From an uncultured delta proteobacterium (GTDB lineage Bacteria; Bdellovibrionota; FAC87; UBA2466), in NCBI GenBank assembly GCA_963778115.1, contig CAVZSV010000007.1, positions 293,719 through 357,718 of the forward strand: a DNA stretch of 64,000 nucleotides, in the 5' to 3' direction. This document shows positions 1-40,132 of the stretch, in pieces. Positions within the stretch are counted from its first letter, which is position 1. Each line of letters opens with the position of its first letter. The notes beneath the pieces were generated by a model. That model was not told the DNA's origin. It saw only the letters and a list, made by a program, of their open reading frames with translations, and made no database searches. Made by a program: the position numbers and the translations under genes.

Positions 1-785
1 AGCGCCCAGACCTCATTAGAAGTACAAGCCCCACTGACACCGGAACAATTTGAGGTACATTGATTGGTATAGGAAGGATTATTGGGATCGGTTCCCAGCG
101 GAGGCGGTTGAATGCCGCACGCCTTCAGGCCTCCGGCCGCCGAGCAAATAGGACTGCACGAGATCACTTTGGCTGGCCATGGACAAGAGACAGAACCGGT
201 TCCCGTTACGCTGAACAATCCCATTTTCTGGCACCCCAAAATGAAGCCGGGGACCGAGGGTGTCATCGATAACTGGAAGTAAACCGCCCCAGTTAGAGGT
301 ATCGGCTGTCCTGAGGCGCTGGCAGTTACGGTAAGTGTTGTGAAATAGCTTGTTGACACCGAGGGGGGAGATGCCGGTGTGACCGGGACCATGGAAGCGA
401 TGGTGACGGACGTTACCGTAATCTGACCGAATTGCATCCCAGCGGTCAAAACAGTTGAATTGGCCAAAGTTAAGGTCACGGACGCCAGCGGACTGGGAGA
501 TGTCGGTACAGGCGCCGGCGGAACTGGCGGAGTAATAGCGCTTTGAAGCAGGGGGAACCTAAGTGCCGCTTGGCAATGCGTTTTGTCATGGAGCGTAAGC
601 CTAGTTATCTGCATTAAATTCTGAAAATCGCGCTGAGCGTTCAGCGTGCCCGAGTTATTGAAAAGAAGTCTCGACAAGGACCCTATCGCACCAAAAAGAA
701 CGACTAGCGCGAAGCTTACGACCACTACTTCGATCAAGGTAACGCCATGGCGGGAGTTAAATGGCGAATGGCAAGTAAACCGCAT
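1..785 (-). CDS. type IV pilin-like protein (prepilin-type N-terminal cleavage/methylation domain), partial; C-terminus runs off the window edge
   Basis: Minus-strand frame is open from ATG (reverse complement of cat at 783-785) to position 3. I checked all 261 plus-strand frame triplets and found no TTA/CTA/TCA. N-terminus MRFTCHSPFNSRHG|VTLIEVVVVSFALVVLFGAIGSL has a basic leader, a Gly, then the xTLIE motif and a hydrophobic helix, which is a class III prepilin signal. The gene is absent from the ORF track because it has no stop inside the window. The C-terminal part is Thr/Ser/Pro-rich with several Cys. Confidence 0.6.
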   Translation of the reverse strand, partial: MRFTCHSPFNSRHGVTLIEVVVVSFALVVLFGAIGSLSRLLFNNSGTLNAQRDFQNLMQITRLTLHDKTHCQAALRFPLLQSAITPPVPPAPVPTSPSPLASVTLTLANSTVLTAGMQFGQITVTSVTIASMVPVTPASPPSVSTSYFTTLTVTASASGQPIPLTGAVYFQLSMTPSVPGFILGCQKMGLFSVTGTGSVSCPWPAKVISCSPICSAAGGLKACGIQPPPLGTDPNNPSYTNQCTSNCSGVSGACTSNEVWA

Positions 786-955: not shown

Positions 956-1645
956 TCAGAACACATCGCCTTCAATGTATTTATATTGATAAATAAAATC
1001 ACACCGAATCTCGCTGGGGGTCGAAGGTCTTTCCGAACCCGTTGGATACCAGTAGTACTTCGCACAATTGAGCGGGTATAGATCTTCGTTAGGATATTCG
1101 GGAACGAAATCCATAATGGCATATTCGTCCCAATCAAAATTTAAGGCGGGAGAGCTAAAGTGCTCCTGATCGAAACGAATCGCTTTTGAAGAAGGAGTTT
1201 TCTGTTGTGTCTTCACATAGGCTTTCTCCAAGGCCGCATAAAGAGCTTCCGCGTCACTGCCACCGATAGAAAACCCTTTTGGATGAAATCGGTTTCCCCA
1301 CGCGGCTATCGGACTTTTCTTAAGACTCCAACTCACTACTTTTTCGGTGCCCTGATTCAGCGCTATCCGACATTGAGCTTGATTCGTAGCGGTGGCTAGT
1401 GCTGGTGTCCCCACGCGAGGACGAATCACGTCGACAAAACACTCGGCACTTTCCATATCATCCCAATTCGGTGCACCAAAAGCCAACGCCAGCGCTTTTG
1501 AACTTTCTGGATGATAGGTCCGCCACGAAATCCGACGAGTGTTCTCGTCGGAATCCGCTTTTGAAACCGGCCCGATGGTGAAATTTAAGAGTATGGTAGC
1601 TACTGATAAAAAAAAGAACGCAGGACGACTTACCCGTCTTTCCAT
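956..1645 (-). CDS. hypothetical secreted protein (N-terminal signal peptide), upstream of and co-directional with the pilin-like gene
   Basis: 229-aa ORF with a hydrophobic N-terminus FFFLSVATILLNF. I recognise no catalytic motif. Confidence 0.45.
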   Translation of the reverse strand: MERRVSRPAFFFLSVATILLNFTIGPVSKADSDENTRRISWRTYHPESSKALALAFGAPNWDDMESAECFVDVIRPRVGTPALATATNQAQCRIALNQGTEKVVSWSLKKSPIAAWGNRFHPKGFSIGGSDAEALYAALEKAYVKTQQKTPSSKAIRFDQEHFSSPALNFDWDEYAIMDFVPEYPNEDLYPLNCAKYYWYPTGSERPSTPSEIRCDFIYQYKYIEGDVF

Positions 1646-1647
1646 TT

Positions 1648-1656
1648 CCCCCCCCC
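1648..1656. repeat. homopolymeric C9 tract (G9 on the minus strand), 3 nt upstream of the ATG of the 956..1645 gene
   Basis: The sequence ...tttcccccccccaatc... is read directly; the tract overlaps the expected RBS position. Confidence 0.9.
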
Positions 1657-1740
1657 AATCATTTTAAACTGCGATAGATGACAAATGGTGTCAACGCAAA
1701 AAAAAACAAAAAACCACTATCGTCGCGTGACGGATAAATC

Positions 1741-1776
1741 GAGTTCCGAGTTCCGAGTTCCGAGTTCCGAGTTCCG
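1741..1776. repeat. heptanucleotide microsatellite (GAGTTCC)x5 in a divergent intergenic region
   Basis: Five perfect tandem copies are read directly, flanked by A-rich tracts. The repeat lies between the minus-strand gene starting at 1645 and the plus-strand gene starting at 2156. Confidence 0.9.
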
Positions 1777-2155
1777 AAAAAATAAAATAAAAAAAACCAA
1801 ACCGTCAGCGATGGAACAGACTAGTCACCTCTTTACGTGCGAAACGGCCTCGCGACCGGTAATTCAGGACGGTAAAAGAACCCCTTTATTCGTTCACGTA
1901 CGTCGATTTATCTTCAAATCAGCCCAAACTGTCTATCTATTAGGCAAAACTGTTTAGGTTTTGAGAACGGCCCACAAGACTTAAAGAAATAATAACTTAG
2001 CTCCGTTTTTAGCTCCGAGTGAACACTAAGTTACCAATTTACCGAGTCCCATCGTCCGTAACTTAGGCACCGTTCTAGTGGAACGAAAATTGCTCTGAAT
2101 ACCCCGTAACATCTCTTCTTTGTGCCCCAAAATGTAGTCCGTTTGGAGTTACCGT

Positions 2156-3700
2156 ATGCGCTTATCACACAGACTCACCCTTTTATCTTTCGCTCTTATT
2201 CTGATCATCGCTGTCAGTGGGTGTTCCTCTTCGAAACAATCTTCCTCAGATTCGGGGTCCGGTTTACCGGGAGCAGGATCGGGAACGACGGGATCCATCA
2301 TTCCTAGTGGTAGCGGTTCGACAGCAGCGATCGCCTCTATCGGAATCACCGCTCCTTCTTCAGCCCCCGTGGAGACATGCGTCCCTGTGGTCTTTAACGC
2401 GTTAGACGCGAACGGAAATTCGCTCACGCTATCCAGTGCCGTCTCGTTTAAGCTCACCGGCCTCACGTCCGCAACCCTTTACACGGACAATCTGTGTTCC
2501 CTTGCCGCAAGTTCGCTCACGATTCCCGCGCAAGCCGCGAATGTGACGTTTTACGTGCTTCCCTCGGCAGCGGGTACTTTATCCGTCAGCTTAACTGCCA
2601 GTTTTGGAACGTTTCCTTTTACCATAAGTATTCTTCCCGATGCCGTGACGCAGATGCAGCTTACCGGTCCCTCCGTCGTTGCTGCAACGACGTGTGCTGG
2701 CCCTTTCACCGTGACTTTACAAACGACAAAAGGGCTCGCCACAGAGACTGGAATTGCTCGCCGAATTACGGTAGGAGCGGATCAACCACGAGGAGGCACG
2801 GGCCTTACCTACTCCGACAATGGCTGCGCCAATGTCGTAGATGGCTTGAATTTCGCGGTAGGTGACGCTTCTCACAACTTCTATTTCAAAGAGTCACAAG
2901 GCCAAGGGCTTTCGTTAGTAGCTACGGCCGGACCTGATGTTCTTGCCGACGCAGTTCTTCCCATTATCGTGACGACGACAGGGGCCGGACTTTCCCTGGG
3001 GCTTCGCCAATCGGACCTCTACTTTAATAGCTTTAAAGGGGTCACTTTAGAGAGAACTTTGACACTGACTAATTTCGGAGCCGTGGCCCTACCCACCGGA
3101 GTGAGTTTCTCAGCGACCAATTTTACGTTCAAGGGCGGAACCTATCCTGGGACGGGGGGAACGTGTACCGCCAATGTCGATGTGAAAGCGGCTTCCCAAT
3201 GTACGATCGTCGTCGATTTCTTTATCGCAAACACGGGAGCCACCGCCGGAGCGGGAGTGGAAACGGTAGTTTCCACTTTTAATATCGCCTTTGGAACGGG
3301 GACTACGATTCCGTACACGGGTCAGGCGATTGGCACCGCATTCCCGACACCTCTTTTACAAATATCCTCTGCCCCCAATTTTAATTTTCCTATTATGTCA
3401 CTTTCGGGAGCTACCACCTCTACCAAGACTTTCTCAGTTACCAATCCGACCAAACTCCCCGTTGGAAATATTACGGGCTCCCTCTCGGAACAGGACGTTA
3501 ATTTTCTGGGGGGAGCTTACCCCGGAACGGGCGGAACCTGTTCCACTTCACTTGCAGCCGGTAAGACTTGCACGATAGTCCTGCAGTACGCACCTAAAAC
3601 GACGAGCATCCCCGAAGCGGGATACTTGGAACTTACTTACTCCACCAACGGAGTTACCAACTCGGATTACGTTGGAATTACTGCCTTCACTAACCCTTAG
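2156..3700 (+). CDS. surface lipoprotein, Ser/Thr/Gly-rich, with repeated beta-domain motif
   Basis: Signal peptide plus lipobox LIIAVSG|C. A motif GG(T/A)YPGTGGTC...C(T)IV..F is repeated at least twice, resembling ASH/choice-of-anchor-type beta-sandwich repeats. Confidence 0.6.
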   Translation: MRLSHRLTLLSFALILIIAVSGCSSSKQSSSDSGSGLPGAGSGTTGSIIPSGSGSTAAIASIGITAPSSAPVETCVPVVFNALDANGNSLTLSSAVSFKLTGLTSATLYTDNLCSLAASSLTIPAQAANVTFYVLPSAAGTLSVSLTASFGTFPFTISILPDAVTQMQLTGPSVVAATTCAGPFTVTLQTTKGLATETGIARRITVGADQPRGGTGLTYSDNGCANVVDGLNFAVGDASHNFYFKESQGQGLSLVATAGPDVLADAVLPIIVTTTGAGLSLGLRQSDLYFNSFKGVTLERTLTLTNFGAVALPTGVSFSATNFTFKGGTYPGTGGTCTANVDVKAASQCTIVVDFFIANTGATAGAGVETVVSTFNIAFGTGTTIPYTGQAIGTAFPTPLLQISSAPNFNFPIMSLSGATTSTKTFSVTNPTKLPVGNITGSLSEQDVNFLGGAYPGTGGTCSTSLAAGKTCTIVLQYAPKTTSIPEAGYLELTYSTNGVTNSDYVGITAFTNP

Positions 3701-6420: not shown

Positions 6421-6606
6421 TCATTAAAAAGAGGTTTTTTTTGATATTTCCGTCGACAATCTAGGTGTCTAAGAACCAGTCACCGTAACCTCCCGGCCCC
6501 CCATGGAAATCCATTTTTTTACGATACCCCTGCCAAAAAGTTCGACAATAGTTCAAATATTACACGCCTGAAAAGTAGGTATTCAAGTTGCATACTAGTT
6601 AGGTTA

Positions 6607-10056: not shown

Positions 10057-13000
10057 ATGAAACGTTCGAACAACATAGGCAAAGCGCACTTCCTGCGAGC
10101 ACTCACGATCTTAGCTATTGTGTTTGCTTTTCGCGCGAACGCCGAAGTGCAGACGACTCTTAATATGACCGTACCTGCGTTGGTCATGGGAACGTCGGGG
10201 ACCTTTAGCTCTTCCCAGGCCTCGGGCCCGGTCGGCACTAACACAGGAACCGTTCTTCATTCCTACGCGGGAGTGGAAAACTTTGTTCAGACTTCGGGAA
10301 CAGGTCGCTTTTCAACCCTTAACGGAACATCCGTGTTCGGAGTGGGTTTCGATACCTTTCAAATCTTTCAAAGTTTTGTCGATCCCGACTACCTGACCGT
10401 CGTAAATTCGAGCACCACTTGCCCTGTTAACAGTACCTACGACTGGATGATGGTTCGCATGAGAACCCCCGATGCTCCTCGAGACAGAATAAGTGCCACC
10501 GATCCTACGCTAACCGCGGGGGGAACTTTTGCCTATACGGCCTCGACATCCACGTTCACGGGAACCAACTATTTTAATCTGTCGGGTCCGACCTTGGCCT
10601 CAACCAATAGTTACGGAATTTCGGGGTATAACAGTACCGTCTGTACGTCGGGAAAGAATTTGGCTTACTCGACGGGAACAAGTTCGCTCGATCAATACCT
10701 CTATGTTTATTACGGCGCCACCAATGTCTCCATCGTGACCTCTAACGGAAACCCAGAGGTCATTATCGCGACCCCGCAAACCACACTTTCTGCGGGAACG
10801 ATGACTTCACTTGCGAATTACGTTTTCACCGGCCTATACACCTACTTTGTGAACGATACGTCTCAGACGCGCGCTAACGTTTACTTGTATCCGAACGCTG
10901 CCGGAACCACGTATACGATAAAACAAGAGACAAGCCTGACCGATCCCACTCAGTACACTACCATCGGTACCCTTACCTGCACTTCACTGAATTCACCGAC
11001 CACAGGCTTTTGTTCGGGAACCCTCACCCTTAGCGGAGTCACCGGAACGGGGAACGCCGTTTGTCTGGTTTCTCCCAACACCACGGAAAATCTTTTACTG
11101 TGCTCGGCCCAATATCCCGGTTACCTAAGTGATCCCGTCACGATTATCGGAAAAACCGTGAGCCAAGGGGTAAGTCAGGTGTCACTTCCCGCGGCGGCAG
11201 CCAGTGTTGCTAGTTCCGGACAGAGCACCAATCTCACCGCTACGGTCCAAAATTTAAGTTCCCGTTACGCTTCGGTCATCGGAAATCCGACAGATCCAGC
11301 TCTGGATCTCTCTTCGCCGTGGTCAAACACGGGAGCCTTCGGAGGCGGAAGCGGGACTTGTGGGACAACTTTAAAAGCGTATTCGTCTTGTACTTTCCCC
11401 GTGACCTATACCTCCACGGGAATCGGAACTAATACTGGGGTTCTTCGCGTGGCCTACGACAATGGAACCGGGACTAACCCGAATGCCACGGCAAATTTAG
11501 TGGGAACCACGGGGCTCGTAAGTCTTGCTATTACTCCTGCGGGAAATTATTTTGGAAATGGTTCCACGACTCAGTTAACGGTAACGGCGACTTATAGCGA
11601 TAGTTCCACCCAGAACGTGACTAGTGCTGTAAATTGGTCGTCGAGTAATACGAGTGCCGCTACGATCAGTAGTTTAGGGTTAGCTTCCTGGGTCGGACTG
11701 GGATCCTCGACCCTGACCGCTAGCCTTGCGTCCGTGTCCACGAATCAAACTTTCAATGTAGTAACACCCCCGGTTTTGACGGTCGTATCCAACCAAATTT
11801 TTCCGAGTTCCTATTTGAACCAGGGCGCTAACTTCACCCAAGATTTTAATAATATTTCTGGAGGATCTCCTGGCAACGATACCAACATGACTTATACATG
11901 CGTCTACGATCAGGTGGTGGATGGTAGCGTGAGTCCTGGAACCGCGTGCACCTCGCTTCCTGGCACCATTTCTTTCGGATCCACAACGGGAATATTTAAT
12001 TGGACACCCACGGCGGGAGCCTGGGGCCCGTATGAAATTAAAGTCACAGGTACTTTAGACACCAACGTCAGCGTCTCTGAAATCTTTGTCATCGACGTTA
12101 GGCCCGGATATGTAACGACGAACCTGCGAGGAGATTACGAAGCGCAATTTGCCAATCTCACCTCCAACTGGACCTCGGCTAGCTACTACTGGGATGATCT
12201 CACCACAAACGCGTTCAATGGAACCTCTAGTAGTACTACGAATGCCACCTGGGTAGGTAACGGAAGCTACTCCTCCCCGTACGCGCTGACTCTAAACGGG
12301 TCAGCCGACATGGACTTTGGCTCGTCACTGATGGCTTCCCAAACTAAAATGATGTTTACGCTGTGGATGGATCCGACCACCAGCACCAATACGGACCAAG
12401 TCATTTTAGGAAGCAGCAACGATGGTACGGGAAACGGCTTTAACCTAAGACAATCTAAAGGCTCGGCCGGCAAAGTGGATTTCTCGGTAGGTCTAGAAGC
12501 CACTTACACCGCATCGGTAAGCAATCTTACTCCGGTCGCCTACTATCGATTGGACGAGACATCAGGAACCACTCTCCATGATAGTTCGGCGAACGGCTAT
12601 AATTTAACTCTGGCGGGTTCGGGAACCACTCTTAATGTGGCAGGCGCTATTAATGGAGATACGGACACCGCCATTCAATATAACGGCAGCGGTTACGCCT
12701 GTAATACCACGTCAAACTCTCTTTCTGGAACGTTTACCGTCGAAGCTTGGGTCAACCCCTCGGCCACGGGAAGTACTTACGGGATTGTTGGGAGTCGAGA
12801 ATCCAGCGACTACTCGTTTGATATGAGCTACATCAGTGGACAATTTCATGCGGATATCGGAAATGGCACGAGTTGGCTCACCCAAACCGCCAATACCACC
12901 GCAAGCACGTACACCACACTCAACGCTTGGTACCATGTCGTCTATGTCGTCACTCCTACGGGCTACACGGTCTATGTAGATGGCGTAAACGCCGGAAGCA

Positions 13001-14934
13001 ATAGTTACACCAGTGCGACTCCCCTGCTTTTCAACTCCAGCCACAATCTTTGTGTCGGTGCCAGCGGATCCAATTTAAATAATTTTAAAGGCAAGATCGA
13101 CGAGGTCGCTGTCTATAATACAGCCCTAAGCTCGACACAAATCTTAAACCATTACAATTTAGGCAGAACCTACTTCACGACCGTCGTAGGCGATTCCCCG
13201 ACCGCTTATTGGCGTCTGGGAGAGACTTCAGGAACGACTCTCGCCGACTCCACCGCCAATGCTTACAACCTCACCATCTCGGGATCGGGCTATACGATGA
13301 ATCAAACCGGCGCTATCTCCGGAGATTCCAATGGAGCGCTCTTGATGACGGGAGCCTCGCAGAACTGTTATACGGGTTCCGCCACATTGCAAGGAACGTT
13401 CAGTGTCGAAGCCTGGGTCTACCCCACTAATGCGACTTCGCTTAACGGAATCGTCGGGAGTCGAGCCAGTGGAGATGAATCTTTCGACATGAAGTATGAT
13501 AGTGGAGTTTTTCACGGCGATATTGGAAACGGGAGTAGTTGGATAACGACAGCGGCGGATACGGCGGCCTCGTACACCACTCTCAATACTTGGTATCACG
13601 TGGTCTATGTAGTGACACCGACGGGGTATACGATCTACGTAAATGGGACCAACGCCGGAAGCAATACCTGGGCGTCGGCAACTCCGATACTCTTTAATAG
13701 CACTCACACTCTGTGCGTAGGAGCTGATTCCGATGCGGCATTTGAGGAGTTAAGCGGAAAGTTAGATGAAGTTGCCATTTACAATTACGCACTGACCTCG
13801 ACTCAAGTCGCCAATCACTACAATACAGGCATCAATTCGTCCGCAGGAGTGACCTCTTGTACTTCGCTCTCCACTCTGGGCAGCGGAGTTTGGAATGCGA
13901 TCGCCGGTATCTTTGATGGAACCAATGCCATCTTGTACGTAAACGGTAGACAGGAATGCACCATGACGGTCTCGGGATCCTTAACGACACCCGCTTCCGA
14001 CGTCATCGCAGGGGCGACTTCAGCCACTTCGAAATACTGGACAGGATCTCTGGCGGAGTTGCAGATCTATGGCGCGACGGGCGCCACTACCGTTGGAACT
14101 GCCGCCAACGTAAATACGAACTTCACTTCCACCGCCGATCTTTTCCGACAAACTCCCGTAGGAGGCATCGTAACTAACGGTTTGGTACTCCATTACGATG
14201 CCGCCAATGCAACACGGGGACTTGCCTTCCCTGGCGACGGTATCAGCCAGACCTCATGGTTTGATCTCTCCTCTTCGATTTTAGATGGAACTTTAAATGC
14301 GTTTACCGGCACGGGAACTTCCGGTTGGACGGGTTCTGGAACTGCCTCTAGCCCCTATGCCCTTACCTTTAACGGATCTTCAAACTACGTGAGCACGGGC
14401 TATACTCAGACTTCAGCGACGGGATATACCATCGAGGTTTGGGTCAATACGACGGACGCGGGAACCGAAAGAACGTTTGTTAACGATCGCGGAAGCGCCG
14501 GATCTGGCAGCAGTTTAACTCTTGGAATCGGGACCACTGGCGGCGGACATGGAGGAGCGGGTTTAGTGGGATGGGAAGTCGACTCTAACTCCCTAGATAT
14601 CGGAGTCTCCTCAACGACTGCCGTAAACGACGGTAAATGGCATCAGGTAGTGGGAACCTGGTCGGCCTCCTCGGGAACTGCCGTAGCGGCAAGTCAGTTC
14701 ACCATTTACATCGACGATGCGGCAGCCGCGACAACCTCGGGCTCTATAGGCTCAGCCACCTCTCCACTTACCGGCCTAGGAGGAACCAGCATTGGATACC
14801 ACTCTCTTTGGGGAACCTATTTGAACGGTGCTATCGCCAAAGTTGCTATCTACAATCGGGCACTCGCCGCTTCCGAGGTGGTACAAAACTGCAAAGCGAT
14901 CGTGGGACGATTTTCGACCGGGGTTTGTCATTAA
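10057..14934 (+). CDS. giant secreted adhesin-like protein (1625 aa) with a Big_2 domain and multiple LamG-like (concanavalin A-like lectin) domains
   Basis: Signal peptide MKRSNNIGKAHFLRALTILAIVFAFRANA. Bacterial Ig-like group 2 signature (...ITPAGNYFGNGSTTQLTVTATYSDSSTQNVTSAVNWSSSN...). At least four LamG_3-type modules end in (K/A)(I/L)DEVA(V/I)YN.ALS..(Q/E)(I/V)..HYN. Two adjacent modules are about 70% identical. Confidence 0.75.
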   Translation: MKRSNNIGKAHFLRALTILAIVFAFRANAEVQTTLNMTVPALVMGTSGTFSSSQASGPVGTNTGTVLHSYAGVENFVQTSGTGRFSTLNGTSVFGVGFDTFQIFQSFVDPDYLTVVNSSTTCPVNSTYDWMMVRMRTPDAPRDRISATDPTLTAGGTFAYTASTSTFTGTNYFNLSGPTLASTNSYGISGYNSTVCTSGKNLAYSTGTSSLDQYLYVYYGATNVSIVTSNGNPEVIIATPQTTLSAGTMTSLANYVFTGLYTYFVNDTSQTRANVYLYPNAAGTTYTIKQETSLTDPTQYTTIGTLTCTSLNSPTTGFCSGTLTLSGVTGTGNAVCLVSPNTTENLLLCSAQYPGYLSDPVTIIGKTVSQGVSQVSLPAAAASVASSGQSTNLTATVQNLSSRYASVIGNPTDPALDLSSPWSNTGAFGGGSGTCGTTLKAYSSCTFPVTYTSTGIGTNTGVLRVAYDNGTGTNPNATANLVGTTGLVSLAITPAGNYFGNGSTTQLTVTATYSDSSTQNVTSAVNWSSSNTSAATISSLGLASWVGLGSSTLTASLASVSTNQTFNVVTPPVLTVVSNQIFPSSYLNQGANFTQDFNNISGGSPGNDTNMTYTCVYDQVVDGSVSPGTACTSLPGTISFGSTTGIFNWTPTAGAWGPYEIKVTGTLDTNVSVSEIFVIDVRPGYVTTNLRGDYEAQFANLTSNWTSASYYWDDLTTNAFNGTSSSTTNATWVGNGSYSSPYALTLNGSADMDFGSSLMASQTKMMFTLWMDPTTSTNTDQVILGSSNDGTGNGFNLRQSKGSAGKVDFSVGLEATYTASVSNLTPVAYYRLDETSGTTLHDSSANGYNLTLAGSGTTLNVAGAINGDTDTAIQYNGSGYACNTTSNSLSGTFTVEAWVNPSATGSTYGIVGSRESSDYSFDMSYISGQFHADIGNGTSWLTQTANTTASTYTTLNAWYHVVYVVTPTGYTVYVDGVNAGSNSYTSATPLLFNSSHNLCVGASGSNLNNFKGKIDEVAVYNTALSSTQILNHYNLGRTYFTTVVGDSPTAYWRLGETSGTTLADSTANAYNLTISGSGYTMNQTGAISGDSNGALLMTGASQNCYTGSATLQGTFSVEAWVYPTNATSLNGIVGSRASGDESFDMKYDSGVFHGDIGNGSSWITTAADTAASYTTLNTWYHVVYVVTPTGYTIYVNGTNAGSNTWASATPILFNSTHTLCVGADSDAAFEELSGKLDEVAIYNYALTSTQVANHYNTGINSSAGVTSCTSLSTLGSGVWNAIAGIFDGTNAILYVNGRQECTMTVSGSLTTPASDVIAGATSATSKYWTGSLAELQIYGATGATTVGTAANVNTNFTSTADLFRQTPVGGIVTNGLVLHYDAANATRGLAFPGDGISQTSWFDLSSSILDGTLNAFTGTGTSGWTGSGTASSPYALTFNGSSNYVSTGYTQTSATGYTIEVWVNTTDAGTERTFVNDRGSAGSGSSLTLGIGTTGGGHGGAGLVGWEVDSNSLDIGVSSTTAVNDGKWHQVVGTWSASSGTAVAASQFTIYIDDAAAATTSGSIGSATSPLTGLGGTSIGYHSLWGTYLNGAIAKVAIYNRALAASEVVQNCKAIVGRFSTGVCH
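12538..13830 (+). repeat. intragenic tandem duplication (2 x ~666 nt; two LamG-like modules) inside the giant gene
   Basis: Residues YYRLDETSGTTLHDSSANGYNLTLAGSG...KIDEVAVYNTALSSTQILNHYNLG are repeated as YWRLGETSGTTLADSTANAYNLTISGSG...KLDEVAIYNYALTSTQVANHYNTG, with a 222-aa period. The antisense ORFs 12712..13044 and 13228..13707 are by-products of this repeat. Confidence 0.8.
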
Positions 14935-19074: not shown

Positions 19075-19098
19075 GGATTAGGATTAAGATTAAGACTA
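19075..19098. repeat. four tandem hexamers GGATTA GGATTA AGATTA AGACTA in the crtY-crtE spacer
   Basis: Read directly. A related attaagattaac string occurs at 26060-26075 in the recJ / M13-peptidase divergent promoter region. Confidence 0.7.
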
Positions 19099-19117
19099 GA
19101 TGAAGAGAAGGTGATGC

Positions 19118-20191
19118 ATGTCCGATAGTGAAGCCATTGAAGCATTTCTTCCCCAGGACGTCTCCGGTTTGTTAGATCTCATCGATTTGAAATTAGGCGC
19201 AGGAAAGACTGCGGAAGCCGAAAAGGAGCCCAGACACGTCATCGCAGCCCTTTTGAGCACGCATCTTCTGCGCCCCGTCACGGAATTCTTAGATAGGCCC
19301 GCGAAAGGAATTCGTGGGCAGCTGGTCGAAATTGGCTTCATCCTCGGCGGGCCTCGCGAACTTTCCTTAAACAGCACTGAAAAAGAACTCTGCCGGCGCG
19401 GTTCGGAACTGGTCGAGTCAATCCACGCCGGCTCTTTGGTCGTGGATGATATTCAAGACGACAGTCAGGTGCGTCGTGGTTCTCCCGCCCTTCATTTGCA
19501 ACACGGTGTCCCTTTAGCGATCAACGCCGGTAATTGGCTGTATTTCTGGCCGCTCGAGCGGCTCGAGAAGTGGAATCTCCCTCCGGCAGCCGAGTTAAGC
19601 ATTCACCGCGCATGTCACCGCGCCTTGGTGAGAGCTCATTTCGGACAAGCGCTGGATATCGGAACTCCCATCGATCAGATTCCTCAAGATAGGATCTCGC
19701 CGGTCTGTTTGGCTTCCTTAGAGTTAAAAACAGGGGCCCTTATGGGTCTCGCCACCGCGATCGGCTGCCTTTTGCGGGGAGGAGATTCCAAGCGGGTGGA
19801 GATGGTTCACGAGTTCGGTGTCAGATTTGGGGTGGCACTTCAAATGTTTGATGACATCGGAAATCTAAAAGCGACTCGCGAAAACGATCCGAAACAGTAT
19901 GAAGATCTCCGTCTTAAACGACCCTCCTGGATTTGGTCGGTGGCTTCAAAGTACTTGGATGAAGCTGACTTCGCCTCGTTTCGCAAGAGTGTCAACCAGC
20001 TTCCCAATACCACCCCTCTGCATGAGTGGTTGCAATTAAACCCACTACTCACCCAGGCCAGGCTTGAAGCGACTCTTTACCTTGAAGACTGCTTAAGACG
20101 ACTTGAAGAAGGGGTTGAAGAATCGGCTTTCCGCAAGACTCTCTCCACGGTGGAGGAGATCGCAGAGACCCTCACCACATCGTATGGCTGA
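19118..20191 (+). CDS. polyprenyl diphosphate synthase (CrtE/GGPP synthase-like trans-isoprenyl transferase)
   Basis: First Asp-rich motif VVDDIQDDSQVRRG and second motif FDDIGN, with an RBS gaagagaagg upstream. Placement between crtY and crtI/B supports a CrtE role. Confidence 0.65.
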   Translation: MSDSEAIEAFLPQDVSGLLDLIDLKLGAGKTAEAEKEPRHVIAALLSTHLLRPVTEFLDRPAKGIRGQLVEIGFILGGPRELSLNSTEKELCRRGSELVESIHAGSLVVDDIQDDSQVRRGSPALHLQHGVPLAINAGNWLYFWPLERLEKWNLPPAAELSIHRACHRALVRAHFGQALDIGTPIDQIPQDRISPVCLASLELKTGALMGLATAIGCLLRGGDSKRVEMVHEFGVRFGVALQMFDDIGNLKATRENDPKQYEDLRLKRPSWIWSVASKYLDEADFASFRKSVNQLPNTTPLHEWLQLNPLLTQARLEATLYLEDCLRRLEEGVEESAFRKTLSTVEEIAETLTTSYG

Positions 20192-22643
20192 TCCGAAGAA
20201 AAAAATTGCGGTCATCGGAAGTGGGTTTGGCGGATTAGCCACTGCGATTCGCCTTCAGGCGGCTGGCTGCGACGTCACCATTTTTGAAAAAAGAGATCTC
20301 CCCGGAGGACGGGCCTACGTTTACCACGATAGTGGTTTTACTTTTGACGCTGGACCTACCGTCATCACGGCTCCTCACTGTTTGGAAGAGCTTTTCACCG
20401 TTTGCGGCCGCAAAATGGAAGACTACGTGGAGCTTGTCCCCCTTTCGCCTATGTATCGACTCTGCTGGGAAGATGGGGATCGCTTCGATTATAGTCACGA
20501 CCTTAAGACAACCGTCACCCAAATCGAGAAGCGGTCCTTAGAAGATGCCAGAAATTACGAACGCTTTCTCGATTACAGTCGAGAGGTTTTTGAAGCGGGC
20601 TACACCGAACTTGCTAGTGTTCCTTTTCTCAATTGGGGAAGCATGATCCGCGCTTCGCCTGAGCTATTGCGACTGAATGCTTTTCGCTCCGTCTATGGAG
20701 TAGTTTCAAAATATATTAAAGATCCCCATCTCAGGCAGGCCTTTAGTTTTCATTCCCTGCTGGTAGGAGGCAATCCCTATAGTACGTCCGCCATTTACAC
20801 TTTGATCCACTATCTGGAGAAAAAATGGGGAGTCTTTTTCCCCAAGGGGGGAACTCACGCCTTGGTCACAGCCTTGGTTCGTCTCTTTGAGGAGATGGGG
20901 GGACATATCGTTTACGGTGATGGGGTAACCGCCATTCGGACGGACCAAGGAAAAGTGACGGGTGTCGCCACCACGAAAATTGAATTCACTCCCTGTGATG
21001 CCGTAGTCAGCAATGCCGACGTTAATCGAACTTATGTAGATCTTCTTCGCAAAGAGCCCCGTGTCGAAAGAACACGGCGGCGCATCGAGGCAATGAGCTA
21101 TAGTCCGTCACTTTTTGTTATCTATTTTGGAACCAACCAAAAATATCCCGACGTAGCCCATCACAATATTCTCTTTGGAAATCGTTACCGCGAACTTTTG
21201 GCCGATATTTACGATAAGGGCATTCTAGCTGACGATTTTTCGCTTTATCTGCACGCACCGACTCGCACCGATCCGTCACTTGCCCCTGAGGGCTGTGATA
21301 CCTTTTATGCGCTTTCTCCCGTCCCTCATTTGGAAAAATCGACGACCGATTGGAATACCGAGGGGCCAAGGTACGCCGATCGTATTTTGGATTACTTAGA
21401 AAAGCATTACTTGCCCGATCTGAAGAGCCACATCGTCACGCGAAGAATCTTTAGCCCTTTGGATTTCAAAAATGAACTCAACGCTTATGCCGGCTCTGCT
21501 TTTTCACTGGAACCTTTACTTACTCAAAGCGCTTATTTCCGCGCGCACAATCGAGATTCAGCAATTCGCGGGCTCTATTTGGTAGGTGCCGGTACCCATC
21601 CCGGAGCTGGAATTCCCGGAGTCGTAAATTCAGCCAAAGCTACCTCAGGGCTCGTATTAGAGGATTTACTTCCCAAGCCGGCGATCGTTCGTCACAGTCC
21701 CGCGGCGAGTCTTGAAGAAAAAAGAGCCCTCGAAAAATGCCGCGAGATGATTCGAGTGGGCTCTAAGAGTTTCTCATTCGCTTCCAGACTTTTCAGCCGC
21801 CCCATTCGAGATGCCGCCTGCTTTCTTTATGGCTGGTGCCGGTACTGTGATGACCAGATCGATCTTATCGAGGACTCCCAAACTCAGCAGGAGAGGCTCT
21901 CCGAGTTGGTCGCCTCCACAAGAGTGGCGTTTGAAGAAGAAAGCGCTCCGCTGCCCGAAGTGTTCGTAGCGTTGCGCTACATCGCTCGCCAGTACGAGAT
22001 TCCCGCCTTTTATGCGACGGAGCTATTGGAAGGATTAAGAATGGATCTCCGTCGGACTCAATACCGTACGTTGGATGAATTGACTCTCTACGGGTACCGG
22101 GTCGCCGGAACCGTAGGTCTTATGATGTCTCACGTCATGGGAGTTACCGACGAGCGGGCCTTAAAGCATGCCGCTGACTTGGGGATAGCCATGCAGCTGA
22201 GTAACATTGCCCGAGATGTTGTGGAAGATTTCCAAATGGGGCGCGTTTATCTCCCCCTGGAGTGGTTGGAGAAAGCTAGAGTGCCCGCATTTGAATTGGC
22301 GGAAATCAAGTATCGCGATGGCTTGGCACGTGTCGTAGCGCAACTTTTAGATAGCGCCGACGGCTACTACCGGTCGGGAAATCGGGGACTGAGGTATCTT
22401 CCTTTGAGAAGCGCACTCGCCGTCGCCATGGCAAGTTCGGTCTATGCCAAAATCGGACACTTGGTTCGCAAGAAAGGACCCAGGGCCTGGGACCGACGGA
22501 CCTACGTTCCCCTCTGGAGAAAATGTTTTTCGCTGGTTCGCGGAGTTTTCTTGGTGGCCTTGACACTTCCCTATCGATTGGAGCAACGTCGTAAACCTAT
22601 TCCATTACTCCGGCTGTGTCGACATACTCCAGGAGAATTTTGA
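20184..22643 (+). CDS. crtIB: phytoene desaturase CrtI fused in a single ORF to phytoene synthase CrtB
   Basis: The N-terminal ~500 aa are collinear with CrtI (KKIAVIGSGFGGLATAIRLQAAG ... GAGTHPGAGIPGVVNSAKATSGLVLEDL). A 15-20 aa linker follows, then CrtB (VGSKSFSFASRLF, YGWCRYCDDQID, AGTVGLMM, ARDVVED). The ATG at 20184 overlaps the crtE stop (ATGGCTGA). Confidence 0.85.
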   Translation: MADPKKKIAVIGSGFGGLATAIRLQAAGCDVTIFEKRDLPGGRAYVYHDSGFTFDAGPTVITAPHCLEELFTVCGRKMEDYVELVPLSPMYRLCWEDGDRFDYSHDLKTTVTQIEKRSLEDARNYERFLDYSREVFEAGYTELASVPFLNWGSMIRASPELLRLNAFRSVYGVVSKYIKDPHLRQAFSFHSLLVGGNPYSTSAIYTLIHYLEKKWGVFFPKGGTHALVTALVRLFEEMGGHIVYGDGVTAIRTDQGKVTGVATTKIEFTPCDAVVSNADVNRTYVDLLRKEPRVERTRRRIEAMSYSPSLFVIYFGTNQKYPDVAHHNILFGNRYRELLADIYDKGILADDFSLYLHAPTRTDPSLAPEGCDTFYALSPVPHLEKSTTDWNTEGPRYADRILDYLEKHYLPDLKSHIVTRRIFSPLDFKNELNAYAGSAFSLEPLLTQSAYFRAHNRDSAIRGLYLVGAGTHPGAGIPGVVNSAKATSGLVLEDLLPKPAIVRHSPAASLEEKRALEKCREMIRVGSKSFSFASRLFSRPIRDAACFLYGWCRYCDDQIDLIEDSQTQQERLSELVASTRVAFEEESAPLPEVFVALRYIARQYEIPAFYATELLEGLRMDLRRTQYRTLDELTLYGYRVAGTVGLMMSHVMGVTDERALKHAADLGIAMQLSNIARDVVEDFQMGRVYLPLEWLEKARVPAFELAEIKYRDGLARVVAQLLDSADGYYRSGNRGLRYLPLRSALAVAMASSVYAKIGHLVRKKGPRAWDRRTYVPLWRKCFSLVRGVFLVALTLPYRLEQRRKPIPLLRLCRHTPGEF

Positions 22644-25989: not shown

Positions 25990-26153
25990 CCCGTTTCCTT
26001 CCGTGTCTTCAGCTTAATGTGTGGGGGTGGGGTTGTTCAACCGATTAAGAATTAACCTTAAAATTAAGATTAACATTACCTTTAACTTTAACCTCATAGC
26101 TACCATTAACCTTCCCCCTAAGCGTCAACGACAGTTGTCATCGCGTCCCAGAT

Positions 26154-39875: not shown

Positions 39876-40055
39876 ACGGATGGATACGACGTATAAAAGT
39901 CGAACACCCCTTTAGCTTTGGAGGTCCCCCTATTCCAGTTAGAGTTGCATATTCTTTGCCAAATTCAGTAATCACTCTCCTCACAAGCAGATAAAAAAGA
40001 GGGGAGGACTCTCATGAGCCGGCACCACAGTAGGGGAGGACCCACGATAGTCAGA

Positions 40056-40089
40056 CAAAAAAGAGGGGAGGACTCTCATGAGCCCTCCC
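40056..40089 (-). terminator. rho-independent terminator for gene 40133..42535 (GGGGAGG-12 nt loop-CCTCCCC + T6), with a degenerate upstream duplicate at 39992..40019
   Basis: Minus-strand reading: ggggagg gctcatgagagt cctcccc tctttttt. The 28-nt string aaaaaagaggggaggactctcatgagcc occurs twice, 64 nt apart. Confidence 0.65.
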
Positions 40090-40132
40090 CAGGACGACTG
40101 TGGTCTTTCTAGACCATCCCCCGATTAAGCTT

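Follow-up and report, generated by a model that had tools for sequence, protein, structure and literature searches.

The window considered here, the whole 64,000-nucleotide stretch of DNA that was analysed, carries near its left end a minus-strand string of genes headed by one for a 229-residue secreted protein with four cysteines, and, diverging from it on the plus strand, a gene for a 514-residue lipoprotein (Table 1). The two are separated by 510 bp (1646-2155), the distance given in the initial annotation, and its description of both flanking genes as encoding exported or envelope proteins is borne out by the signal peptide of the 229-residue product and the lipobox of the 514-residue one. 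Downstream of the former, three pilin-like genes follow on the minus strand, as a contig of the Logan assembly shows, with the N-termini G↓VTLIE and G↓QTVLE and a weak match to the Pfam family N_methyl (E 0.0055). The only relatives of the 514-residue lipoprotein are distant ones with ASH/HYDIN-like Ig domains. Another large surface protein is encoded nearby, at 10057-14934 on the plus strand; it has 1,625 residues, a partial match to the TafC fimbrial family and a weak choice-of-anchor D domain.

Table 1. Features of the divergent locus, sequences preceding the start codons of related genes, and example arrays at other loci. Positions are those of the window unless a locus is named.
Feature	Position	Strand	Remarks
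First of three pilin-like genes after the 229-aa gene	1..785	minus	Prepilin-type N-terminus G↓VTLIE; runs off the window
Gene for 229-aa secreted four-Cys protein	956..1645	minus	Motifs WGNRFxPKGFS and RCDFIYQ; first of a gene string running into the pilin-like genes
T8 run	1608..1615	minus	In signal-peptide codons (F-F-F-L), codons 10-13 of the 229-aa gene; T7 in the same place in the homologue
G9 homopolymer (C9 on plus strand)	1648-1656	minus	Putative Shine-Dalgarno region of the 229-aa gene; G9, then AA, then ATG
Predicted -10, CAGTTT	1666..1671	minus	Relatives have CAGCGT, CAGCTT, CACTGT
Conserved non-coding block, CGTTGACnnnnTnTGTCnTCTAnCGCAG	1669..1696	minus	28 nt; spans the predicted promoter; common with the upstream region of the homologue
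Predicted -35, TTGACA	1689..1694	minus	TTGAC(A/G) conserved in 5 family lineages
A9	1698-1706		Left of the array
T6-G-T9 tract	1698..1713	minus	About -54 to -39 from the predicted TSS, a putative UP-element position
A6	1708-1713		Left of the array
(GAGTTCC)5, perfect heptamer array	1741-1775	both	Periodic over 1740-1777; found by TRF
A-rich tract A6 T A4 T A8	1777..1798		8% GC; adjoins the array on the right
Second promoter candidate, CTGACG-N18-TATTTT	1779..1808	minus	Weak and speculative; 8 of 12 matches only
Promoter-like site, GTAACA-N16-CAAAAT	2106..2133	plus	Weak; only such site before the lipoprotein gene; GGAG Shine-Dalgarno after it
Gene for 514-aa lipoprotein	2156..3700	plus	Divergent; lipobox LIIAVSG↓C
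Relatives L156-159, before start codon			GGGAGGGG, then TA, then ATG
Relatives L151-154, before start codon			GGGGGG, then CGAA, then ATG
Relative L003, before start codon			GGGGG, then CGCAC, then ATG
Relative L150, before start codon			GGGTTGGGGG, then TAAT, then ATG
Relative L155, before start codon			GGGAGA
Example array at L084	1138-1170		Reverse-complemented locus coordinates
Example array at L094	1550-1579		Reverse-complemented locus coordinates
Example array at L034	1402-1434		Reverse-complemented locus coordinates; about 6567-6599 in plus coordinates

An exhaustive profile search placed the 229-residue protein in a small family of about 32 representatives, each of roughly 220 residues, secreted and with four conserved cysteines. 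Judged by their sequences, the protein and its relatives (P0002 and P0017-P0046) define a small, uncharacterised family of probably secreted four-Cys proteins. The AlphaFold (AF2) model of the 229-residue protein is a confident one, with a pLDDT of 85.6 and a pTM of 0.78, and a Foldseek comparison of this model with the PDB gave no fold match (best E 0.026, TM 0.25 or less). Because its N-terminus aligns residue for residue with that of a 45%-identical homologue, the ATG at 1645 gains support as the start codon.

Tracts prone to slipped-strand mispairing are concentrated around this start codon. The 190 bp ahead of the exported-protein/pilin-like operon, counted from the run inside the coding sequence, hold T8, G9, T9, the five heptamers and A8. 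Both of the 9-nt homopolymers of the window lie within 1648-1706, 4 of its 28 runs of at least 7 nt fall in 1608-1796 (0.3% of its length), and the heptamer array is its sole perfect tandem repeat (units of 2-12 nt, at least three copies, at least 15 nt). A G/C run of at least nine is expected about 0.4 times in 64 kb and is not rare by itself; it is the position and clustering of the tracts, not the G9 run alone, that stand out. That the G9 run and the heptamers belong to slip-prone sequence classes, as had been proposed, is correct, the former sitting at the threshold for a hypermutable G/C run (about 8-9 or more). The tracts also occupy the places where those of contingency loci are found, that is, the leader (G9), the 5' coding region (T8 in codons 10-13) and the DNA upstream (the array); a slip in T8 would frameshift the 229-residue product. 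This concentration is striking and gives the region the look of a contingency locus, a point that we count against the explanation preferred below. Outside this region, simple repeats are not abundant in the window, in contrast to genomes that rely on such loci.

We compared the upstream DNA of the 229-residue gene with that of eight further lineages of the family. A scan for canonical sigma-70 promoters at strict settings found nothing, and a promoter emerged only from this alignment: five of the nine lineages, the window included, place TTGAC(A/G) 47-51 nt ahead of the (probable) ATG, and in four of those five it is followed, after a spacer of N17-18, by a -10-like hexamer CA(G/C)nnT, whose conserved A2 and T6 are the two critical positions of the sigma-70 -10 element. 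In the window the two hexamers are separated by N17. From this conservation we infer a sigma-70-type promoter for the 229-residue gene, with transcription starting near 1659 and a leader of about 13 nt. The 28-nt block that spans it recurs at 7963-7990 of the homologue's locus (L003), where the encoded protein is only 45% identical to that of the window; the block is unique in both sequences, with no occurrence expected by chance. It includes the dyad TGACA-N5-TGTCA, a possible operator overlapping the spacer of the promoter. A predicted promoter and Shine-Dalgarno architecture, conserved across an uncharacterised family of secreted proteins, is a useful product of the comparison.

The G9 run belongs to this architecture. 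Read on the minus strand, the start region is 5'-GATTGGGGGGGGGAAATG-3', with the last G at position -3 relative to the first base of the ATG (1645..1643), and a G-rich Shine-Dalgarno directly precedes the ATG in all lineages aligned, the window and its eight relatives alike. Since the relatives have a G-rich Shine-Dalgarno in the same slot, the simplest reading of the G9 run would be the family Shine-Dalgarno in homopolymerised form, and its placement at a ribosome-binding site by the initial annotation gains from the same comparison. The accompanying suggestion that slippage would alter the spacing between ribosome-binding site and start codon does not hold, because the 3' end of the run stays 2 nt away from the ATG while gain or loss of G alters its 5' side only. 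Nor does its length much affect the predicted pairing. In a duplex calculation against the canonical 16S tail, a model that leaves out kinetic and leader-length effects, G8 and G9 both give -11.6 kcal/mol and G10-G14 give -11.5, as against -10.5, -9.5 and -8.4 kcal/mol for G7, G6 and G5. With the predicted pairing flat from G8 to G14, slippage by one or two steps in either direction should not change the strength of the Shine-Dalgarno and hence should not switch translation. Should the run act as a Shine-Dalgarno, as its position suggests, the effect of slippage would be at most a mild tuning through leader length, and we would expect no switching effect at the locus.

The heptamers lie further out. 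Five perfect tandem copies flanked by long A-tracts were described from the outset, and both the sequence and TRF agree (period 7, 5.4 copies and 100% matches over 1740-1777; A9 and A6 to the left, A6, A4 and A8 within 1777-1796 to the right). On the sense strand of the 229-residue gene the array reads (GGAACTC)5 and ends 96 nt before the ATG and about 47 nt before the predicted -35; relative to the predicted start of transcription it occupies about -82 to -116, beyond the UP-like T-tract. The only promoter-like site ahead of the lipoprotein gene is about 330 nt away. The array thus falls outside every -35/-10 spacer predicted here, against the proposal that the heptamers vary the spacing of a promoter. 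The weak second promoter candidate, if active, would transcribe through it. Isolated copies of the heptamer are not enriched elsewhere in the 64-kb window (12, with about 10.5 expected), a search of the region against Rfam returned no family at E<=1, and RNA folding of the region was not significant (z = -0.07). Comparison of the repeats across related genomes had been put forward as a check, and it divided the two: relatives have a G-rich Shine-Dalgarno in the slot of the G9 run, whereas none of the eight other lineages aligned has a counterpart of the heptamer array in its upstream region.

Two assemblies of one sequencing run bear on the lengths of the tracts. The k=31 Logan assembly of run ERR11523675 has the same C9 as the source contig, and C9, A9 and A8 are identical in both. 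One of its contigs (L001) ends at about 1770, at the first fully periodic 31-mer; a k=31 de Bruijn graph necessarily breaks where a sequence of period 7 runs for 38 nt or more, so that a break within the array is expected. It confirms the array; it comes from the same sample, and so does not represent an independent population. The next contig (L002) does not begin until 1805, so that the A-rich 1778-1804 is missing, whether through coverage, a variant at 1804 or a short unitig that was not reported. The contig ends were considered as a sign of length heterogeneity and rejected as such, since the left-hand break is the one that the repeat imposes on a k=31 graph. Exact look-ups of both flanking proteins returned only the source genome and a single Logan assembly, itself from this run; searches for homologues turned up no close orthologue for either, and a scan of metagenomes with the conserved promoter block recovered only the known relative and four unrelated matches at chance level. 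Among relatives, four assemblies that derive from different samples agree in a G6 tract, which is shorter than G9. Phase variation at the locus is unproven.

Several repeat systems offer points of comparison. In Neisseria meningitidis, nadA has a TAAA tract upstream of its core promoter. The heptamer array, likewise distal to the -35, could in the same way change how upstream elements are placed relative to the core promoter, but the two differ in unit length and copy number, and neither a regulator nor an IHF site was identified in the window. Closer in unit length are the hmw1A and hmw2A genes of Haemophilus influenzae, where (TGAAAGA)13-38 lies 69-106 bp upstream, varies among strains and grades expression (Dawid et al. 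1999, per PMC2651432). The present array shares with them a 7-bp tandem unit about 100 bp ahead of the start codon in a gene for a surface or exported protein (96 bp here, from 1741 to 1645, within the approximate range of 70-110 bp) and a position outside the -35/-10 spacer; it differs in its unrelated unit and in its five copies, well below 13-38, whereas hmw1A and hmw2A have documented variation and a measured effect on expression. Where a locus of that type has its repeats between two transcription starts, the window offers upstream of its five copies only the weak promoter candidate. For the G9 run the nearest precedent is tlpB of Helicobacter pylori, whose mRNA leader contains a variable G-repeat read by the small RNA RepG (PMC8295292). 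Both are G-runs of about mutable length in the leader of an envelope-related gene, but the run in the window would itself be the Shine-Dalgarno, adjoins the ATG and has a predicted strength that is independent of length from G8 to G14. Heptamers of a different kind are the cyanobacterial STRRs, which are intergenic direct repeats. TAACTGA heptamers, also intergenic direct repeats, occur in Beggiatoaceae, Cyanobacteria and Bacteroidetes, and a translational role has been proposed for them (PMC4679880). The array is like both in being heptamer direct repeats in intergenic DNA, but those repeats are present in many copies per genome and stand a few nucleotides from an ATG, whereas here there is one array in 64 kb, 96 nt from the start codon and with a predicted promoter between.

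The heptamer itself recurs widely. A scan for (GAGTTCC)3 in one genome per species gave, among the matches listed, more than 120 loci from very diverse phyla, several genomes being matched on three or more contigs (loci L004-L123; examples in Table 1). Their flanks are unrelated to the window, and further heptamer arrays abound in the DNA near them (69 additional perfect ones in 851 kb), with inverted (GAGTTCC)n partners able to form hairpins commonly present. Among the loci listed, the ATG of a long open reading frame comes 0-10 nt after (GGAACTC)n at 13 of 124 arrays, against 2 of 121 in the opposite orientation, and the reading frames so placed are ordinary genes, for example those for ThyX, SelB, arginase and threonine synthase (ThrC), recognised by eye in the translations. 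The unit was found at four loci in viral contigs, and units matched to it in composition at 0, 13 and 4. The count being no higher than in the controls, it gives the unit no special status. We regard these arrays as a lead and, for the array in the window, as a low-probability alternative, kept at that level because the latter is solo, lies 96 nt from the ATG and is made of a heptamer unenriched in the window. Heptamer arrays beside start codons across phyla are a side product of the analysis.

On balance we consider it probable, by a modest degree, that the locus combines a conserved promoter, a homopolymerised Shine-Dalgarno and a young upstream microsatellite, with little or only modulatory effect; that estimate applies to the parts jointly, the origin of the heptamers by slippage included. 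Here the sigma-70-type promoter TTGACA-N17-CAGTTT and its T-rich UP-like tract would drive the 229-residue gene, giving a leader of about 13 nt made up mainly of the G-rich Shine-Dalgarno. In this genome that element would have turned into a pure G9 run, where a relative has GGGAGGGG, while (GAGTTCC)5 would have arisen in AT-rich sequence beyond the core promoter, through slippage. Both tracts would be intrinsically more mutable than ordinary DNA, and the likeliest consequence of a slip would be nil, or a mild tuning of expression, as opposed to an ON/OFF switch. The locus is real and slip-prone, and plausibly a weak modulator. Besides the clustering of the tracts, we count against this explanation the perfection of the array, which implies recent or ongoing turnover, and its distance of 96 bp from the start codon, which falls within the 69-106 bp of the hmw1A and hmw2A repeats. 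The competing view, which we think rather unlikely, is that of a true contingency locus, in which slips in G9, in the heptamers or in the T8 of the coding sequence would stochastically switch the secreted protein and the pilin-like genes on and off or grade their expression, the G9 run acting through the leader and Shine-Dalgarno and the array through the geometry of the upstream promoter region, each unit adding 240 degrees of helical rotation. The classes and positions of the tracts fit such a locus, the slip-prone tracts cluster strongly, the genes under their control encode exported or surface proteins, and there are precedents both for heptamers about 100 bp upstream (hmw1A and hmw2A) and for variable G-repeats in a leader (tlpB with RepG). 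It has to contend, however, with an array outside the -35/-10 spacer that has only five copies, with a Shine-Dalgarno pairing that is insensitive to one to five G more or fewer, with a homologous G6 tract that is invariant in four assemblies, and with the lack of other repeat-controlled loci in the 64 kb. If the tracts do vary and do affect expression, the locus would exemplify stochastic control by repeats beyond the host-adapted pathogens from which contingency loci are known, in an uncultured environmental bacterium and for an exported-protein/pilin-like operon.

The remaining readings dispense with slippage or question the tracts themselves. The array might be a functional, sequence-specific element and not a mutational switch, either a multi-site binding platform in DNA or an unstructured (GGAACUC)n leader; in the latter version it would be transcribed from the weak upstream promoter, in the manner of the arrays beside start codons in other phyla. 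The orientation bias of those arrays speaks for such a role, as do the same sense orientation of the array in the window, the promoter candidate upstream of it (P2) and the precedent of the TAACTGA repeats (PMC4679880). We nevertheless find this improbable, given 96 nt and a conserved promoter between array and ATG, a heptamer unenriched in the rest of the window, relatives of the 229-residue gene that lack the array, viral contigs in which the unit does not exceed controls of matched composition, and an RNA fold at z = -0.07. Slightly less probable still is the narrower proposition that the array is a solo copy of a widespread, undescribed class of heptamer repeats, often paired with inverted (GAGUUCC)n partners and placed by preference just before start codons, and that it acts on expression of the 229-residue gene by RNA or DNA recognition and not by slippage. 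That the exact tract lengths are errors of sequencing or assembly (homopolymer miscalls or a collapsed repeat), so that neither G9 nor the five copies would be biological, we likewise hold to be improbable: the source contig of 550 kb may indicate long reads, both assemblies come from one run, and the k=31 assembly shows only a periodic tract of at least 38 nt, but C9, A9 and A8 agree between two differently built assemblies, and the reading frame and signal peptide beside the tract are intact. The GGAAC of each unit could also be taken for the -35 element of an ECF sigma factor, the array then being a tandem series of such elements with a CGTC -10 at N17 from the penultimate unit (GGAAC at 1754..1750, CGTC at 1732..1729, minus strand). 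Downstream genes that are envelope-related would suit it, but the pattern occurs twice in the window with 1.16 expected, 31% of shuffles do as well, and the conserved sigma-70-type promoter would already account for the gene; the reading was set aside as being at chance level in the window, and we give it scarcely any credence. Least credible of all is that the array lies inside a real small gene, a plus-strand reading frame at 1685..1957 (90 residues) that a 7-nt slip would frameshift. The frame does exist, and the array is open in all frames, but it has no Shine-Dalgarno, its product is lysine-rich and of low complexity, it overlaps with the conserved promoter on the other strand, and it is absent from the genes listed on the partial Logan contigs L001 and L002, neither of which holds the whole of it.

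Repeats of other kinds, and one unusual coding sequence, were seen elsewhere in the window. Degenerate GATTAA/ATTAAC hexamer repeats occur at 19076-19106, directly upstream of an ATG at 19118, and at 26044-26094, in the divergent intergenic region 25990-26153; together with another GATTAAG near 40124, these may be bound by one shared regulator. Between two minus-strand genes, at 39986-40084, a unit of 32 nt is present about three times (consensus AGCCGACAAAAAAGAGGGGAGGACTCTCATG), each copy having a strong Shine-Dalgarno-like GAGGGGAGG followed by an ATG. At 20103-22643 on the plus strand, a single open reading frame of 846 residues is an apparent CrtI-CrtB fusion, matching phytoene desaturase CrtI over residues 36-531 and phytoene synthase CrtB over residues 543-816.
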